A stretch of DNA of 64,000 nt from an uncultured delta proteobacterium (GTDB taxonomy: Bacteria; Desulfobacterota; Binatia; UBA9968): assembly GCA_963737905.1 (NCBI GenBank), contig CAVTUQ010000014.1, positions 1 through 64,000 on the forward strand, given 5' to 3'. The first letter of the stretch is position 1. Every line of letters begins with the position of its first letter. The translations under genes and the position numbers were made by a program. A model generated the notes under the pieces. The model saw nothing but the letters and a program-made list of their open reading frames with translations. It was not told the origin of the DNA and searched no databases. Below, one piece after another: positions 27,182-35,377 of this stretch.

Positions 27182-27343
27182 ATGAAGAGCTCCCACAGGG
27201 GGATGAAGATCAGCGAAGACGATTGGTCGGTATTTTTAGGGCACCTCACTGCCACTCTGCAGGCTTTTCAACTTCCTCAGGCTGAACGTGACGAGGTGGT
27301 CGCAATTCTACAGGGCACGAAGCCAGATATCGTCGAAGCATAA
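27182..27343 (+). pseudogene. C-terminal half of a group 1 truncated hemoglobin (53 aa; not in ORF track)
   Basis: (RD)MKSSHRGMKISEDDWSVFLGHLTATLQAFQLPQAERDEVVAILQGTKPDIVEA*; matches the trHb F-helix proximal His (xSHxGMxIS) and G/H helices; the N-terminal half is absent. Confidence 0.65.
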
Positions 27344-28122
27344 TGCCCTGGACGTTTTCGCATCCCGCTGCGGTGCTACCGCTCCGGCGGCTCTGTCCGG
27401 TGCCGCTAGACTTTTCCGCGCTGGTGATTGGGAGCATGATTCCTGATCTGGGCTATTACCTCTTTTACTCGAAACTGGCGCGTTTGGCCCACAGCTTTTC
27501 CGGGAGTTTCTTGGTCTGCCTTCCCATAGGGTTAGCGCTCTGGGGATTATTCCGATTGTTGCGCAAGCCGCTTTGTTTCGTGCTTCCACAGCCCCACCGA
27601 GAGGCTCTGGCCACATTTGCCGCGACTCCGCTTTGCTTGCGTCCGCGCACTCTGATCACGGCTGGGATCTCAGTGCTGCTCGGTGCGTGGACCCACATCG
27701 TTTGGGACTCCTTCACCCATAGTGGCACTTGGGTGGTCAAGCAACTGCCGCTCCTCCGGGAGTCAGCATTTCGAGCAGGCGCCGTTGAATTTCCCTGGTT
27801 TGTTCTTCTTCAGCAACTGAGTACCGTAATAGGCGCCGCAATTCTAATCGCAGCCTATTGTTCGTGGCTGCGTCTCCATCGCGGTTCGGTTACCGATCCC
27901 TCCAGTGCAGGCGACCGTTGGCGTTACCTATTGCTAGTCGCCATTGCCGCAATCGCGTTGGTCATTGCTGTCCCCCCTGCAGTCCACACAGCAGGGTATT
28001 TCAAAGGGCTTCCAGCATTGCATGTCTTTGCATTCCGCATCGCAGTCTACACAACCATCGCCTTTTTTCCATTGCTCATAGTGTCATCGCTTGTCATGTA
28101 TGCCGCACGACGAGAGGGCTAA
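27343..28122 (+). CDS. DUF4184 family membrane protein
   Basis: MPWTFSHPAAVLP, GSMIPD, THIVWDSFTH, LQQLST. Confidence 0.85.
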   Translation: MPWTFSHPAAVLPLRRLCPVPLDFSALVIGSMIPDLGYYLFYSKLARLAHSFSGSFLVCLPIGLALWGLFRLLRKPLCFVLPQPHREALATFAATPLCLRPRTLITAGISVLLGAWTHIVWDSFTHSGTWVVKQLPLLRESAFRAGAVEFPWFVLLQQLSTVIGAAILIAAYCSWLRLHRGSVTDPSSAGDRWRYLLLVAIAAIALVIAVPPAVHTAGYFKGLPALHVFAFRIAVYTTIAFFPLLIVSSLVMYAARREG

Positions 28123-29104: not shown

Positions 29105-30478
29105 ATGAACGGACTAGAAGTGATTGATCTAAAGCCTGTGGGTTTTGTCGCAAGCTTACTGGGCCACCGGCCGAAAGAAAATGCATTTTTGGAGATTCAC
29201 AATGTAGTCGCTACCCTTCCTATTCCTCATATATCCGAAGAGGCGGTAACCGCTTGCTTGGACCGCTATGGGATAACCGAAGAAGAAGCAAAGCCAAGGC
29301 TGTTAAGCATTTATACACACGTATTAGAGTATTTCATCAACGATTTATCCATTTCAGATGATGAGGTCGAGCAATTGCGTCACCTCGCGGCACTCTTCAA
29401 GCTCGGACCCGACGAAATCACCCAGATCCATACTGAAATTGTCTATCCTCTTTATGAGAAAGCGGTTCGCCAAGCCTTAAAAGACCGCCAGCTAACCGAT
29501 GACGAAAACGAAACCCTTACCGATTTATGCACCAAACTGCGAATCCCGGATTCGGCCGCCGCCGAGATGTACAAAAAGTACGCCGTGCCGATTTACAATC
29601 AGGTCATGAGCGAGGTCCTGGCCGACGATATACTCACACCGGATGAAGAAAAAGAATTGGCAGAGGTGGCAAAAGCACTAAAATTGAATATACGATACGA
29701 CGAGAAGCTCCAGTCGATTCTGGACCGCGCCCGACGCTTGTGGCGGATTGCGCAAGGCGACCTGCCGGTCTTGACCGTCGCGGTGCCTTTAGAAGCCAAC
29801 GAGCGGTGCTCTGCTGATGTCGAGGCTCTCCACTACGAGCCTCGGAGAGTGGCAGTAGGGTTCGGCTATAGCGGCTTCTCCACATCCTATGGCACGCCCG
29901 GTATCCGGTTCCGTTCGGGCATAGTGAACACCCACAGCCTCAACAGTCAGAACCTGCAGCTGCGGGGGGCGGGGACTCTGTATTTTACCAACCGGCGTTT
30001 TCTGTTTAATGGCGATTCCCATTCGACCTCAATAGATCTCGGCGCCGTTGCAACTATTACGTTCTATTCTGATGGCATGCGCATCGGAAAGGAAGCCAGT
30101 ATCGATCAGATATTTACTTTCGCCGGCGATATCGACATGCTGCGGCTGATTGCGGACAGTTTGATGACAACTCACCGCCAGGAGTCACCGCCTAGATCCG
30201 ATGAGTCTACCGGAACCGGGCGGACGTCAGACAGGTCGGAACGCAAGAGAAACAGCTTCCGCACACCTCCCCGGCAAGAAAGTTCAAAATCGCCATATGA
30301 AATCCTGGGAATTACCGCAACCACTTCAAAAGAAGAAATCAGAATTGCCTACAGGAAGATGGCGAGCCTGTATCATCCCGACAAAGTCGCACATCTGGCA
30401 CCCGAATTCCGCGAAATGGCCGACATCAAAATGAAGGAAATCAACACCGCTTACGGAGCATTGAAAAGTAAAAAGTGA
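29105..30478 (+). CDS. Multidomain protein: TerB-like helical repeats + PH-like domain + C-terminal J-domain
   Basis: Three D-x-x-[IL]-[ST]-x-D-E repeats, GTLYFTNRRFLF, and SPYEILGI...YHPDK...EINTAY. Confidence 0.72.
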   Translation: MNGLEVIDLKPVGFVASLLGHRPKENAFLEIHNVVATLPIPHISEEAVTACLDRYGITEEEAKPRLLSIYTHVLEYFINDLSISDDEVEQLRHLAALFKLGPDEITQIHTEIVYPLYEKAVRQALKDRQLTDDENETLTDLCTKLRIPDSAAAEMYKKYAVPIYNQVMSEVLADDILTPDEEKELAEVAKALKLNIRYDEKLQSILDRARRLWRIAQGDLPVLTVAVPLEANERCSADVEALHYEPRRVAVGFGYSGFSTSYGTPGIRFRSGIVNTHSLNSQNLQLRGAGTLYFTNRRFLFNGDSHSTSIDLGAVATITFYSDGMRIGKEASIDQIFTFAGDIDMLRLIADSLMTTHRQESPPRSDESTGTGRTSDRSERKRNSFRTPPRQESSKSPYEILGITATTSKEEIRIAYRKMASLYHPDKVAHLAPEFREMADIKMKEINTAYGALKSKK

Positions 30479-30657: not shown

Positions 30658-31971
30658 TTATACAATACCCGCCGCAGCGAGCGCAGCCCAGGCTGTATGT
30701 GGATGAATAATATCACTGTGCGCGCCTGAGGGAGGGTCACCTTTTACTATCACCTGGTTCCCGTCCAGATTCAGCCATTTCCCTGCCTCAAAAGCGTACG
30801 CAGTTCCGGGCCTCCCCAGAGACGTTGACTTTGCATTCACTGCCTGAGCGCCATCATGTCCCATAGCTCCCCAGCGAAATGTGATGTCTTCTTCTTTCGC
30901 AGCGTCTTGTCGAGCAACAATCGATGCGAGCGGGTAGGAAGATCCAACCGCGAGATCCTTGAGCGAATGCGTTGTTAGCAAGGGTCCATCTACTCCCACT
31001 GCCATCCCCGCGAGGTCTCCTTTTCTCGTGGTGTCGAAAGGTAGCTTATCCGCGAAAGTGAAATGCGAGAATGCGCCCTGCAGTAAAAAGAGCGACTTGA
31101 CTGGTGACTTATCGCCGCCGGCTGGGCGGGGCAACCCGGCCAAGGCATAGGACACGAGTCGCGCCCCAAAGGAGTGACCGAGCAGATGAATCCGCAATCC
31201 CGGTATCTTCTCATGCAACTGGTTAATCAAAGGCCCAAGGCCGACCTTGCCCACGACACCGGCACGGTCCTTCATTTGCCAATACGTCGCCAAGCGCAAA
31301 GCACCCTTGGCTCCGTCCCATAAACGGCCGAAAACGTCGCCCAATCCGGCCGCGCCGCCGGACGAACCTTCGGCGGCTTCTTGATCCGCAAGCGCTTCGA
31401 AGATCTCACGCCATTTCCCATCCTCCGCTTCCAAGCCCCGTTTTTCGAGGTTATCCGAAGAAGACGTACCCGCCGATGAACCGCCAACCAACCGGCTAAG
31501 TTTACTCTTGAAATCCTTCAGAGATTGCTCGTTGGGTTTCCTCTGAGCGAGAAGGCTCAGCAGCTCTGCAAGAATTTTCTGCTGTGCCGGGGTGCGGAAG
31601 ACCTTTTTGAGCTCCTTCGCGAGATCGCCAGACATTCCCCCAGCGCCAAGGCCCGCCGCACCGCCAGTTGAGGCTTCGTCGGGCCATAGAATCGATGGCC
31701 AGATGACACCTGCCCCGACGATCTTCGCCGAACGTCGCTTGGTGAATGCCGGATTGTCGATCAACTTTCGCATCTCGCCAAAGAAGCCCTGATATAAGGT
31801 TCTCGCCGTCTTGGCATCGTTGTTCCAGCCATGTGAGAAGATAAACAAATCATCCGGTTTCGCGGCTTCTATTTCGGTAAGGGACTTTCCGATTGCCGCC
31901 TTATCCTCTGGGGAACCCTCTTCGGTAAACCGTAACTCCCAAAAAGAAAACCCAGCTAATTGTTCTGCCAT
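30658..31971 (-). CDS. Alpha/beta hydrolase (DUF900-like) with an internal helical insertion
   Basis: FSHGWNN oxyanion motif, IWPS, GHSFGARL nucleophile elbow, HSLKDLAV, GAHSDI; GGAGG RBS before ATG 31971. Confidence 0.82.
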   Translation of the reverse strand: MAEQLAGFSFWELRFTEEGSPEDKAAIGKSLTEIEAAKPDDLFIFSHGWNNDAKTARTLYQGFFGEMRKLIDNPAFTKRRSAKIVGAGVIWPSILWPDEASTGGAAGLGAGGMSGDLAKELKKVFRTPAQQKILAELLSLLAQRKPNEQSLKDFKSKLSRLVGGSSAGTSSSDNLEKRGLEAEDGKWREIFEALADQEAAEGSSGGAAGLGDVFGRLWDGAKGALRLATYWQMKDRAGVVGKVGLGPLINQLHEKIPGLRIHLLGHSFGARLVSYALAGLPRPAGGDKSPVKSLFLLQGAFSHFTFADKLPFDTTRKGDLAGMAVGVDGPLLTTHSLKDLAVGSSYPLASIVARQDAAKEEDITFRWGAMGHDGAQAVNAKSTSLGRPGTAYAFEAGKWLNLDGNQVIVKGDPPSGAHSDIIHPHTAWAALAAAGIV

Positions 31972-32016
31972 AGTTCCTCCTTCCCATGACACTCAGGTTG
32001 AACAGTCATGGGCGCG

Positions 32017-33613
32017 TTAGACCGACTGTATAGCGCGCATCAGATCCACCAGACCATGTCCTTCAAAGTAGCGCTCACGCCCAAGCGGGGTAGCGCTTTC
32101 GAGAAAGATTCGTTTTACTTCCTCCGGCCGCTGGATAAATTCCCGGCGGATTGACAGAAATGCCGCGATGGCTCCCGACACGTGAGGAGCCGCCATGCTC
32201 GTGCCGGAATCGTCTATATAAGCAGCGACTCCGTCTTCTATTTCGCCTCCGTGACTGACAAGCTTCTTCCCTGCCGCGCACGAAGTGATGCGCTCCCCTG
32301 GAGCAACGAGGTCTGGTTTCAGTCTGCCATCCCCTGTGGGTCCCTTGGAGGAAAAATACGAGACACCGTAGAGGTGTGGAGAATCCCGATGGGTCGCACC
32401 GACAGTAATGGCCAGTGAAGAATTGCCGGGATCATTGATAGTATTGGCCAGGCCGACCTTGGTCTGCCGCTGTTGGCTATTGAGTCGACCATAACCGGTA
32501 TTCCCGGCAGCCACGACCACAATCACTCCGCTTTTAACAAGGCGATCCACCTCGACGCACAAAGGACTTTGCCCGCAAGCGAACATTTCGGCATCGAACT
32601 CATAGCCAAGACTGAGGTTGACTCCATGCACCCGTAAGAGCTTCGGGTCGGCGTTGAGATCTCTACGTATATACTCTAACGCTCGCATGATGTTGCTGGT
32701 ACGTCCCTCTCCGCCGTCATCGAGGACTTTCAAACTGACTAACTTACACCGCGGCGCCACACCTTGAAGCTTCTCTGGATTCGTGACCGTGCGCCGCTGA
32801 ATCTTGTGTTCTTTGTTCTCGCTGGTCGGATCCGATACATACACGTTCTCGTACACGCGAAAAGCTTTATCTTTCAAACCCTTCGACAAACCACCGGCTA
32901 TGATGCCGGCAACGTGCGTACCGTGGCCGTAACCGTCGGTGAGAGCGCTCTTGATTGGCGCGGGTTCGCTAGGCTTATCGCCTGTGAAGTCTCGGTGCAG
33001 TTCAGCCACGTCAGGGTGAAAGAGAAGATGCTTCTTCGGTTCCGCGGGGTTTCCAAAATGAATATGCCTGGCGGCAATGCCGGAATCGATCACCGCCCAC
33101 ACAATGCCATCGCCAGTGGCCTCATAAGACCGAACTGCCGCATCCCCTTTGATGGTTCCGACGGACCGGTCAATAAGTGGTGACAAAGGGAAATCGGGCC
33201 AGATGCGGTAGATCAGGCGGTCGCGGAGTTCCTTCGCCTGTTCTTCATCGGCCTTGACGAGTTCGCGCCACTCCTGAACACACAGCTTGCAGCGATAATA
33301 GGTTTGTGTGATACGAACCGGCGGACGCTCTTTAGCAGCCGTTCCAATCTTCTTTTTATAAAAGTCTTCAAACTTCTTGGCCGCTACTTCTACACCTCCT
33401 TTGTAGAGGAGGTTAAGCTCCACCATATAAGGTCCCGGCTCGAACTCGCTTGTTGGCAGATCCCATTCCGCGCGGCGCTTCGGATCCTGCAGGGCAGGAG
33501 CAACTGTCGCGCGACCCAAAGGGGGGAATGGCGGCTCGGGCTTCTTTGTTGGCTCGGGATTATTTAGTGACTTTGTTTTCCCGCTTCTTTCTCGGAGGTT
33601 CTGACTCAGCCAT
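32017..33613 (-). CDS. S8 subtilisin-like serine protease, no signal peptide (probable frameshift near 33580)
   Basis: Catalytic triad VIDSG, HGTHVAG, GTSMAAPHV; oxyanion AAGN; the ATG at 33613 with an RBS is out of frame with the long ORF. Confidence 0.92.
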
Positions 33614-33665
33614 AGAATTCTCTCCCCTGAACGGAGATCACGATGAGGGACAAAGCAGCAATCAA

Positions 33666-33695
33666 TTAATAATCTCATCTTGTCTGTACTGTCAA
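33666..33695 (-). promoter_or_regulatory. Putative sigma70 promoter for the subtilase-hydrolase cassette
   Basis: Minus strand TTGACA-N18-TATTAA about 50 bp upstream of ATG 33613. Confidence 0.45.
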
Positions 33696-33721: not shown

Positions 33722-35293
33722 CTATTCCTTCACCTGATACTTCCCTTCCCCATCTTGATTAATCTTCCCCTCCTGATGCAGCTTTCCAACCGCCGTCGCG
33801 ATTGTGCGATAGCCGGATTTCGGAAAGAACGCTAGAAGATCCGGGAAGAACAAGTGCGACTTTGCGAGTGCAGCGAGGATCTTTTCAGCCATAACATCGA
33901 CTGTTTGATCTGGCTTCCCATGATTGGCTGTTTTCAGCGCCTGGTCACCATCGCCGAGATGGTTTTTCAGCTCAACCTTACCCTGATTAAAATAAACGAT
34001 CCGGTTGTAGCGATTGCGTGACACGTTTTCCGGGATAGTCGCGTCGATGCCCATCTTCGCCGTGGTCGGGATTTTACCGGTGGTGGGTGGCGACAGCGAA
34101 GGATCTAACGGTTTAGCCCGAGCATTGGAAACAATCAGCACGTCGCGATCCGCCTGCACCCGCGTGGCCACGGCCCATTCGACGTCCGTCGGATCGAAGA
34201 TGTCGATATCATCATCGACGATCGTCACATGTTTGATGTCGGCAATCGAAAGCAGCGCCATGATCGCATTCTTGCCGTCGCCGGGTTGTTTCTTGATCGA
34301 CGCGACGATATGCCAGTGGCAGCAGCCGCCCGGGGTGACATTGATCGCCGTCGCCTGGACGCCGGCCTCGTGCAAAACACGCCACGCCGCCGCTTCGTAG
34401 ATCGGCGCGCTCATCCAGATATTTTCCCAGGGCATATGGAGCGCATAGTAGATGGGATCTTTGCGATGCATGATCGCTTTGATCCGCACGTGGGGATTCA
34501 TGTGGATCCCGCCCATCAGGCGATTGAACTCGCAGAACGGTCCTTCGGGATGCACCCAACCTTCGGGTAGAATCTCCCCTTCCAGAACGATTTCGGCGTC
34601 AGCGATACAGGGAATGGGAATCGTTTCGCCGTCGGCCAAGCCAAGCGGTTGGCCACGCATACCGCCGGCGAACGTCAGCTCATTCACTCCCAGGTTCGCT
34701 TTAAATGTCGAGACGACCAACTCGTAGGGATGAGTGCCGATGGAGATGGAAATCGGCAGCGGCTTTTTGCGCTGCAAGGCCCGCTCGGCAAACCTTCGCA
34801 GGTTGTTGGGCGTAACGATATCAATGCCCGTAATATTTCTTTCCTTAAGCATCAATCGGTACATACCGGCGTTCATGCCGAACTCCGGATCTTCTGCGAT
34901 TACGACTCCCGCCGTAATCATCGGCCCGCCGTCCATCACGGAAAATATCGGAACCGGCAGCTCGTAGAGATCGACTTTGTTCTTGGTGAGAATCACCTCT
35001 TTCACAGGTGCTTTTGTAATCCGCTTGGGCTTTACCGGATGATCCATCGCAGTGCGTAACTTCGCCTCGATCTTTTCGTACGGTGCATCCATTCCCAAAG
35101 CGAGGCGACTACGCGATTGGAGCAAACCCGACGCCACCGGCATGGAGTAGCCGCGCACGTTGGTAAACAGCAACGCTTTATCCGACTGCGGTACCAGCGC
35201 GGCGACATCGCGCAGATCCGTGGCCTTGGAAATAACGGTGAGCTCGTCGTTTTTTTTTAGCGCGTCGAGATAGCTTCTAAAATTAGCAGCCAT
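33722..35293 (-). CDS. UbiD family prFMN-dependent (de)carboxylase with C-terminal extension
   Basis: DGGPMIT, NAGMYRL, AEIVLEG, EGPFCEF, VDDDIDIFD, WAVATR, KMGIDAT. Confidence 0.9.
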   Translation of the reverse strand: MAANFRSYLDALKKNDELTVISKATDLRDVAALVPQSDKALLFTNVRGYSMPVASGLLQSRSRLALGMDAPYEKIEAKLRTAMDHPVKPKRITKAPVKEVILTKNKVDLYELPVPIFSVMDGGPMITAGVVIAEDPEFGMNAGMYRLMLKERNITGIDIVTPNNLRRFAERALQRKKPLPISISIGTHPYELVVSTFKANLGVNELTFAGGMRGQPLGLADGETIPIPCIADAEIVLEGEILPEGWVHPEGPFCEFNRLMGGIHMNPHVRIKAIMHRKDPIYYALHMPWENIWMSAPIYEAAAWRVLHEAGVQATAINVTPGGCCHWHIVASIKKQPGDGKNAIMALLSIADIKHVTIVDDDIDIFDPTDVEWAVATRVQADRDVLIVSNARAKPLDPSLSPPTTGKIPTTAKMGIDATIPENVSRNRYNRIVYFNQGKVELKNHLGDGDQALKTANHGKPDQTVDVMAEKILAALAKSHLFFPDLLAFFPKSGYRTIATAVGKLHQEGKINQDGEGKYQVKE

Positions 35294-35377
35294 TCTTTCC
35301 TCCTCTCGAAATAGAAGGCATAAACCAACCATGGATGAAAATAGGTGTCAATCAAAGCAGCGCGAATCATTTTGCGG

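Follow-up and report, generated by a model that had tools for sequence, protein, structure and literature searches.

It has been appreciated only recently that arming an effector by a protease is a common principle in the immunity and cell death of bacteria. Among the described systems, the closest to the locus analysed here is LcHydrolase of Lysobacter capsici, an alpha/beta-hydrolase encoded beside a caspase-like protease. LcHydrolase is cut at Arg73 and Arg117, between Arg and Gly, and its N- and C-terminal fragments kill E. coli when co-expressed (Evans et al. 2025, bioRxiv 10.1101/2025.11.14.688446). The pairing of alpha/beta-hydrolases with caspases was first noted by Kaur et al. (2020, eLife, PMC7159879). 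Here we analysed 64,000 nucleotides of DNA from an uncultured delta proteobacterium (contig CAVTUQ010000014.1, positions 1 to 64,000; this whole stretch is called the window), in which an alpha/beta-hydrolase gene that encodes the heptapeptide GGAAGLG twice lies just downstream of a gene for an S8 subtilase. Our results suggest, from sequence comparison and with a probability of about 0.7, that this hydrolase is a zymogen gated by the adjoining subtilase at the twin motifs.

The locus shares with the LcHydrolase/LcCaspase pair an alpha/beta-hydrolase encoded beside a protease and two conserved sites that bracket a middle fragment, which is dispensable in LcHydrolase. Moreover, when the LcHydrolase sequence given in Table S1 of Evans et al. 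is read by eye, its sites occupy the corresponding topological place, between the second core strand and the helix to the nucleophile. The two cases differ as follows: the protease is an S8 subtilase instead of a caspase-like enzyme, the site is GGAA-x-Leu instead of Arg-Gly, and the middle fragment has 102 residues instead of 44. The proteins themselves also differ (437 residues with SHGWNN and GHSFGA here, 296 residues with IHGR and AHSLG in LcHydrolase), and they are likened by their architecture. Modules of this type, as set out by Evans et al. and Kaur et al., comprise a hydrolase that adjoins or is fused to a protease gene and two conserved sites bracketing a middle fragment within the fold, both found here. 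They further comprise cleavage at these sites by the partner to give an active or toxic form, which is predicted here, and a fused or accompanying sensor (STAND, WD40, vWA-MoxR and the like), of which the window pair has none. Thus, the S8 partner, the site code, the larger plug and the absence of a sensor domain are new with respect to the Evans et al. scheme. A literature search, which did not cover the supplement of Evans et al. (this may list subtilase-linked hydrolases), turned up no account of S8-hydrolase pairs that bear twin GGAA motifs. The locus extends the one experimentally studied alpha/beta-hydrolase case to another protease class, another hydrolase lineage and a minimal two-gene form.

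Three further groups of systems are related in logic. In VcMBL/Avs2 and the other modules that pair a protease with a metallo-beta-lactamase (MBL), a zymogen is also cut at two sites by a linked protease, and the partner of a single effector family may be a protease of the trypsin, caspase or S8 type (Evans et al. 2025; PMC12799240). Their effector, in contrast, is a nuclease of the MBL fold, and their proteases are fused to STAND or other sensors. In gasdermin-protease pairs, such as those of bacterial bGSDM (10.1101/2021.06.07.447441), an adjacent protease removes an inhibitory segment and so releases a death effector; there, a single C-terminal cut frees a pore-forming protein, whereas here the substrate would be an enzyme with an internal plug. 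The protease of such pairs is sometimes a subtilase, as in fungi, where the gasdermin HET-Q1 is paired with the subtilisin-like HET-Q2. Finally, the CspB subtilase of Clostridium activates a hydrolase zymogen, pro-SleC, by site-specific cleavage during spore germination (PMC3567191). In that case the substrate is a cortex lytic enzyme, a propeptide is removed by one cut and the setting is developmental, unlike the mobile two-gene module considered here.

The hydrolase gene occupies 30658..31971 on the minus strand and encodes 437 residues from the ATG at 31971, the longest open reading frame (ORF) starting at the GTG at 31992 and giving 444 residues. Since AAGGAGG precedes the ATG and an identical database protein (P0001, 437 residues) starts there, ATG 31971 (Met8) is probably the true start. 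Residues are numbered here by the 444-residue ORF, and the numbering used for the structural model is that of the ORF minus 7. The first GGAAGLG (site 1) comprises residues 110-116 (31645..31665, minus strand; context ASTGGAAGLGAGG) and the second (site 2) residues 212-218 (31339..31359, minus strand; context GSSGGAAGLGDVF), so that the positions given by a preceding sequence-only reading were reproduced exactly in ORF 30658..31992 (minus strand). That reading had also held that the identity lies at the protein level and does not come from a DNA duplication, which our comparison bears out. Thus, the two 21-mers match at 16 of 21 nucleotides and differ in four of their seven codons (GGT/GGC, GCG/GCC, GGC/GGA and CTT/TTG). 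In addition, the right flanks are unrelated (5 of 30 nucleotides match) and the left ones only weakly similar (16 of 30), so there is no extended duplication.

An exact repeat of at least seven residues arose in 7 of 5000 composition-preserving shuffles of the hydrolase protein. The complete genome (6.7 Mb) contains 10,018 six-frame ORFs with 100 residues or more, and of these the hydrolase alone has two copies of GGA[AV][GSA][LFMI]. The remaining two GGAAGL occurrences in the genome lie in N-terminal glycine-rich GGGAAGL stretches, which we take to be flavin adenine dinucleotide (FAD)-binding motifs. The hydrolase itself is single-copy in its genome.

The S8 subtilase gene lies at 32017..33678 (minus strand) as a 553-residue ORF whose true start is uncertain, and it matches Pfam PF00082 at 5.2e-40. 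Its residues Asp198 (33085-33087), His252 (32923-32925) and Ser494 (32197-32199), together with the oxyanion Asn393, are invariant in 36 sequences. A spacer of 45 nucleotides (31972..32016, minus strand), which contains the AAGGAGG ribosome-binding site, separates the stop codon of the S8 gene from the ATG of the hydrolase gene, and the two genes look like an operon.

The association of the two genes is not peculiar to the window. Scanning one genome per species, we confirmed 503 relatives of the hydrolase among 600 pattern matches and retained 80 loci. In 63 of these, an S8 homolog on the same strand ends 2-104 nucleotides (median 26) upstream of the hydrolase. Note that 7 of the 17 loci without S8 have less than 100 nucleotides of upstream sequence, so that the linkage amounts to 63 of 73 informative loci; the other 10, mostly from Streptomyces and Pseudonocardia, lack the S8 despite at least 3 kb of upstream sequence. 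No third gene recurs across the 80 loci, and their surroundings are mutually unrelated, as expected of mobile modules. The related loci and the plasmid matches described below include Mycobacterium, Nocardia, Streptomyces, Rhizobium megaplasmids, Acidobacteriota and cyanobacteria. Among the loci without S8, in L066, L078 and L079 (Streptomyces) the hydrolase is followed by an unannotated opposite-strand ORF of about 940 residues with a signal-like N-terminus, and in L068 and L070 (Pseudonocardia) unannotated ORFs, one P-loop/LuxR-like of about 1000 residues and one sigma-factor-like, lie upstream.

A plasmid protein search returned 30 records, of which 11 contexts were examined. The S8 gene was upstream in five of them (Rhizobium johnstonii pRL11, Burkholderia SFA1, Rhizobium Pop5, Sinorhizobium medicae and Rhodococcus rhodochrous, the last by tblastn only). 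Another five (Nostoc MS1, Planktothrix, Gemmobacter, Bradyrhizobium and Sinorhizobium terangae) have CHAT and/or C25 cysteine peptidases after the hydrolase, and the last context, on an Embleya plasmid, is unannotated and without S8. The proteins linked to CHAT or C25 keep the whole hydrolase architecture, including the insert. This wider lineage is large: the hydrolase gave 2279 matches at E of 1e-3 or below and the CHAT/C25-linked sister family 2356 at E of 1e-20 or below, among 8000 scored candidates each. A search of 401 Pseudomonadota genomes with a CHAT-linked relative gave only 2 matches. Two of the sister modules (L086 and L089) adjoin a WD40-repeat protein (Planktothrix) and a large "ATP-binding protein" (Sinorhizobium terangae), respectively, and these neighbours could be the sensors that the S8 version lacks.

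In some relatives, the two partners are one protein. Of 20 longer relatives, 14 are fusions of the hydrolase with an S8 domain. Since their order, hydrolase then S8, is opposite to the gene order in the window, they are not read-through artefacts of the window arrangement. The others include fusions to Peptidase_C25 plus PLD, to trypsin domains (two proteins) and to a non-specific endonuclease. Odd architectures are found among P0243, P0255 and P0258, with GMC oxidoreductase domains plus S8 (1676 residues), PLD-like plus Peptidase_C25 (1408 residues) and a DNA/RNA non-specific endonuclease (878 residues).

We next consider the fold in which the motifs lie. With Pfam, the only match of the hydrolase was Abhydrolase_1 at 0.007, below the cut-off, and DUF900 (PF05990) gave none at E of 0.01 or below. 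Although the N-terminal HG-W/N oxyanion loop and GHSxG are common to the hydrolase and the DUF900 alpha/beta hydrolases, and 25 of 70 relatives match DUF900 weakly (best 2.7e-6), the window protein stays below the gathering threshold of that family. An AlphaFold2 model built on 70 sequences (predicted local distance difference test (pLDDT) 82.9; predicted template modelling score 0.87) is an alpha/beta-hydrolase. In a wide search with VIA-align, the model matched lipases, a phospholipase A1, thioesterases and a DDHD domain (Z 12-13.8, root-mean-square deviation 3.1-5.3 A over 164-239 residues). Foldseek against the PDB gave no match at E of 0.001 or below, and when the family profile was searched against PDB sequences, no relative emerged; the matches were weak, helical and confined to the insert (plectin, 8e-4). 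Ser274 (in GHSFG), Asp346 and His425 (S267, D339 and H418 in model numbering) are invariant across more than 70 sequences, the CHAT-linked ones included. On the model, then, the hydrolase has an alpha/beta-hydrolase fold with a GxSxG nucleophile elbow and an invariant acid and His.

The order of the elements in the model, in its own numbering, is a strand at 84-90 (..VIWPS), a loop at 100-114, helices at 117-198, a loop at 200-209, a helix at 210-255, a strand at 260-266 and Ser267. This agrees with the earlier claim that the motifs flank a helical segment placed between the WPS strand and the helix to the nucleophile elbow. Site 1 falls in the loop after the WPS strand and site 2 in the loop before the long helix. 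Both loops are predicted to be disordered (pLDDT below 50), and among the insert helices the two at 128-163 are modelled confidently.

The motifs are conserved within these loops. We aligned 119 relatives of the hydrolase with 50-100% identity. At site 1, the two Gly are each present in 115 and the following Ala in 113; the next position is Ala in 95 and Val in 21, then comes Ser, Gly or Ala, and finally a hydrophobic residue in 116 (Leu 62, Phe 29, Val 10, Ile 9, Met 6). Site 2 reads Gly (119), Gly (119), Ala (112), Ala (106), Gly (91), a hydrophobic residue in 118 (Leu 77, Phe 33), Gly (106) and Asp (90). By comparison, the linker positions around the motifs are only 18-40% conserved. Both motifs are thus islands of 80-100% conservation in variable loops with pLDDT below 50, a pattern typical of short linear motifs that a partner protein recognises. 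Even the S8-linked relative on the Burkholderia plasmid, at 39% identity, retains GGAAAL and GGAAGL. Thus, the alignment of homologs comes out in favour of the earlier reading, which expected both motifs to be conserved around a varying insert. The insert is not freely variable, as its helices are moderately conserved, and the strict GGAA form proved to be limited to a subfamily.

The motifs also change with the class of the partner protease. In the sister family linked to CHAT or C25 (120 sequences), the same two loops carry a twin V-S-F (site 1: V in 66, S in 109, F in 113; site 2: V in 74, S in 70 or N in 28, F in 95 or Y in 11, then G in 95). A model of this family has the same loop-insert-loop layout, with pLDDT below 50 at 110-126 and 215-220 around helices 129-214. 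The two trypsin-fused relatives have a twin G-R instead (STGR/QSGR in one, SSGR/TNGR in the other), which fits the usual Arg specificity of trypsin-like enzymes. Similarly, A-A-x-Leu/Phe resembles the classical subtilisin substrates of the Ala-Ala-Pro-Phe/Leu type. The Arg of the trypsin version, the Phe of the CHAT/C25 version and the Leu of the S8 version all stand 11-14 residues before the same helix landmark, LR, and for this reason we place the putative cuts after Leu115 and Leu217.

A third copy of the motif is present in hydrolase-S8 fusions. A G[GA]x[AV]x-hydrophobic motif occurs in the linker at the hydrolase-S8 junction in 8 of the 14 fusions, compared to 0.42 expected from shuffled linkers. 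Examples are GGAASL, GGAADL and GGAAAM, and in P0254 the hexapeptide is identical to the protein's own site 1; two further fusions have near matches (GGIATV and GGATAL). The fusions (P0241-P0257) show another regularity: after the third motif and ahead of the S8 domain, [ST]-E-A-F-x-[IML]-P recurs (e.g. MSEAFAMPE, ISEAFKIPE), followed by R-x-G-L and then by PGPVMIELNL. In this S8 lineage, the stretch may serve as a conserved regulatory element at the N-terminus.

These observations are consistent with the following mechanism. Each GGAA-x-Leu motif would be an exposed, disordered recognition and cleavage site for the S8 protease encoded 45 nucleotides upstream, most likely cut after Leu115 at site 1 and after Leu217 at site 2. 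Cleavage at both sites would set free the helical insert of 102 residues, which divides the fold between strand beta4 (WPS) and the helix to the Ser274 elbow. Of the three predicted fragments, the N-terminal one, Met8-Leu115 (108 residues, 11.9 kDa; 31648..31971, minus strand), holds the HGWNN oxyanion-loop strand and the WPS strand. The putative plug, Gly116-Leu217 (102 residues, 10.7 kDa; 31342..31647, minus strand), is the charged helical insert. The predicted C-terminal fragment, Gly218-Val444 (227 residues, 23.8 kDa; 30661..31341, minus strand), holds GHSFG (31165-31179), Asp346 and His425. The N- and C-terminal pieces would stay together and form an active Ser-Asp-His esterase or lipase-like enzyme.

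The reading of the hydrolase as a gated zymogen is based on the S8 linkage, the fusions, the motif islands, the tracking of the motifs with the protease class, the third site, the invariant triads and the LcHydrolase precedent. The proposal that the motifs are subtilase cleavage sites, made originally from the window alone, has thus gained support from comparison: the constant S8 neighbour, the tracking, the third copy at the junctions and the two-site precedent all point to it. By analogy with the described systems, and because the neighbourhoods are unrelated and the genes are carried on plasmids, the hydrolase probably acts as a toxic effector that its protease triggers, within a module for conflict or cell death.

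A broader idea, which we put forward tentatively and hold to be somewhat doubtful, is that within one hydrolase superfamily the gate loops, and the third site at fusion junctions, form a rewritable "cut-here" code, reading GGAA-x-Leu/Phe with S8, V-S-F with CHAT/C25 and G-R with trypsin-like proteases. Were it true, the twin motifs of their partners would reveal where thousands of uncharacterised bacterial proteases cleave. The S8 version would then be a switch for death or defence that is complete with two genes and needs no sensor domain, the N-terminal extension of the S8 protein acting as the trigger. In any case, the tracking of motif with protease makes testable predictions of scissile sites and of protease specificity, and the twin sites offer a handle for engineering switchable enzymes, for example with a tobacco etch virus (TEV) protease site in their place.

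Several results weigh against the gated-zymogen reading. Among 60 full-length S8-linked genome loci (37-65% identity), 12 have the strict GGA[AV] at both sites and 9 at a single site, while 39 lack it altogether. Most of these 39 lie in a short-insert clade (83-88 residues; 35 of 72 aligned rows, 2 of them without S8), which has PSTGAQL at site 1 and AQG[IL][GP]NPF at site 2. Since this clade carries other sequences at both sites, the GGAA "code" is subfamily-specific. Of the 10 loci without S8, nine lack GGAA at both sites, while L012 retains both. The twin-ness of the sites, measured as the exact longest common substring, averages 3.0 in S8-linked and 3.2 in S8-less loci and does not tell the two groups apart. 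With these means, and with the strict motif at both sites in 12 of 60 loci, we dropped the notion that motif loss tracks S8 loss, except as a description of the nine loci just mentioned. Other points concern the setting: neither a sensor domain on the S8 (by Pfam) nor a conserved third gene (in the 80 loci) was found, the hydrolase matches no family among the PADLOC-DB 2.0 models, and the window surroundings are metabolic (UbiD, enoyl-CoA hydratase, a luciferase-like monooxygenase, GGT), with no defence island. In addition, part of the conservation of site 2 may be structural, because in the model G-L-G-D begins the long helix.

This last point touches an alternative in which the Gly/Ala-rich motifs are uncut structural hinges of a mobile lid, as in the interfacial activation of lipases, conserved for flexibility or packing, the S8 protease serving another purpose. 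Fungal lipases are known to have lids ahead of the nucleophile, both motifs consist largely of small residues and lie in loops modelled as flexible, and the GLGD of site 2 caps the following helix. A hinge, however, does not require the same sequence at both ends, and it has no reason to become V-S-F or G-R when the class of the partner protease changes, or to recur in the junction of the hydrolase-S8 fusions. There, the tag recurs exactly where the protease would need to cleave for its own release from the substrate, which a hinge hardly explains. We consider this alternative improbable. A different possibility is that the S8 protease does cut at the motifs, and that cutting inactivates or turns over the hydrolase, or is plain maturation, so that the pair would serve housekeeping lipid or ester metabolism under proteolytic control. 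The metabolic surroundings, the missing sensor domain and PADLOC hydrolase model, and the single-copy state of the pair would all suit it. Yet cuts placed precisely on either side of an insert inside a catalytic fold resemble the gating of a zymogen, the analog that has been studied by experiment turns toxic on cleavage, the neighbourhoods are unrelated from locus to locus, as for mobile modules, and the S8 matches a PADLOC "subtilase" model at 2.6e-47. This explanation has, in our view, little probability.

The relation could also be the reverse, with the insert and its twin motifs keeping the S8 protease inactive, as a pseudo-substrate or as a docking element, the hydrolase being an inhibitor or chaperone and the S8 the effector. 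Two identical motifs could fill the clefts of two S8 molecules, and the S8 N-terminal extension has no recognised inhibitor domain. Against this stands the invariance of the hydrolase triad in more than 70 sequences, CHAT-linked ones included, which implies selection on the hydrolase as an enzyme, and in the LcHydrolase precedent the hydrolase is the effector; we regard the reversal as very improbable. Apart from these readings, a secreted lipase with its maturation protease was considered and rejected by eye only, as neither N-terminus has a hydrophobic signal-like stretch.

With respect to the S8 protein, the N-terminal extension of about 170 residues has no Pfam domain match, and our guess of an I9-type propeptide at about residues 87-165 found no support in Pfam. 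In PADLOC-DB 2.0, its match at 2.6e-47 is to model PDLC03014, and IetS models match more weakly. The two proteins of the pair do not both match models of any one system catalogued in that database.

Finally, we looked at the other genes near the pair. The DnaJ and UbiD neighbours in the window are absent from all 80 related loci, so they do not qualify as parts of the system. Two genes from the hydrolase, at 27343-28122 (plus strand), a DUF4184/Zn-dependent phospholipase C-like protein (1.3e-51) is encoded, with no evident link to the pair. The UbiD-family decarboxylase (33722-35332, minus strand) lies directly upstream of the S8 gene on the same strand, and extends about 100 residues past UbiD_C at its C-terminus. 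The DnaJ-domain gene (29105-30478, plus strand) is convergent with the hydrolase gene and ends about 180 nucleotides from it; its 457-residue product combines a helical region resembling Tic110 with a DnaJ domain at the C-terminus (7e-13), and matches the PADLOC candidate-defence model PDC-S48 (3e-16).

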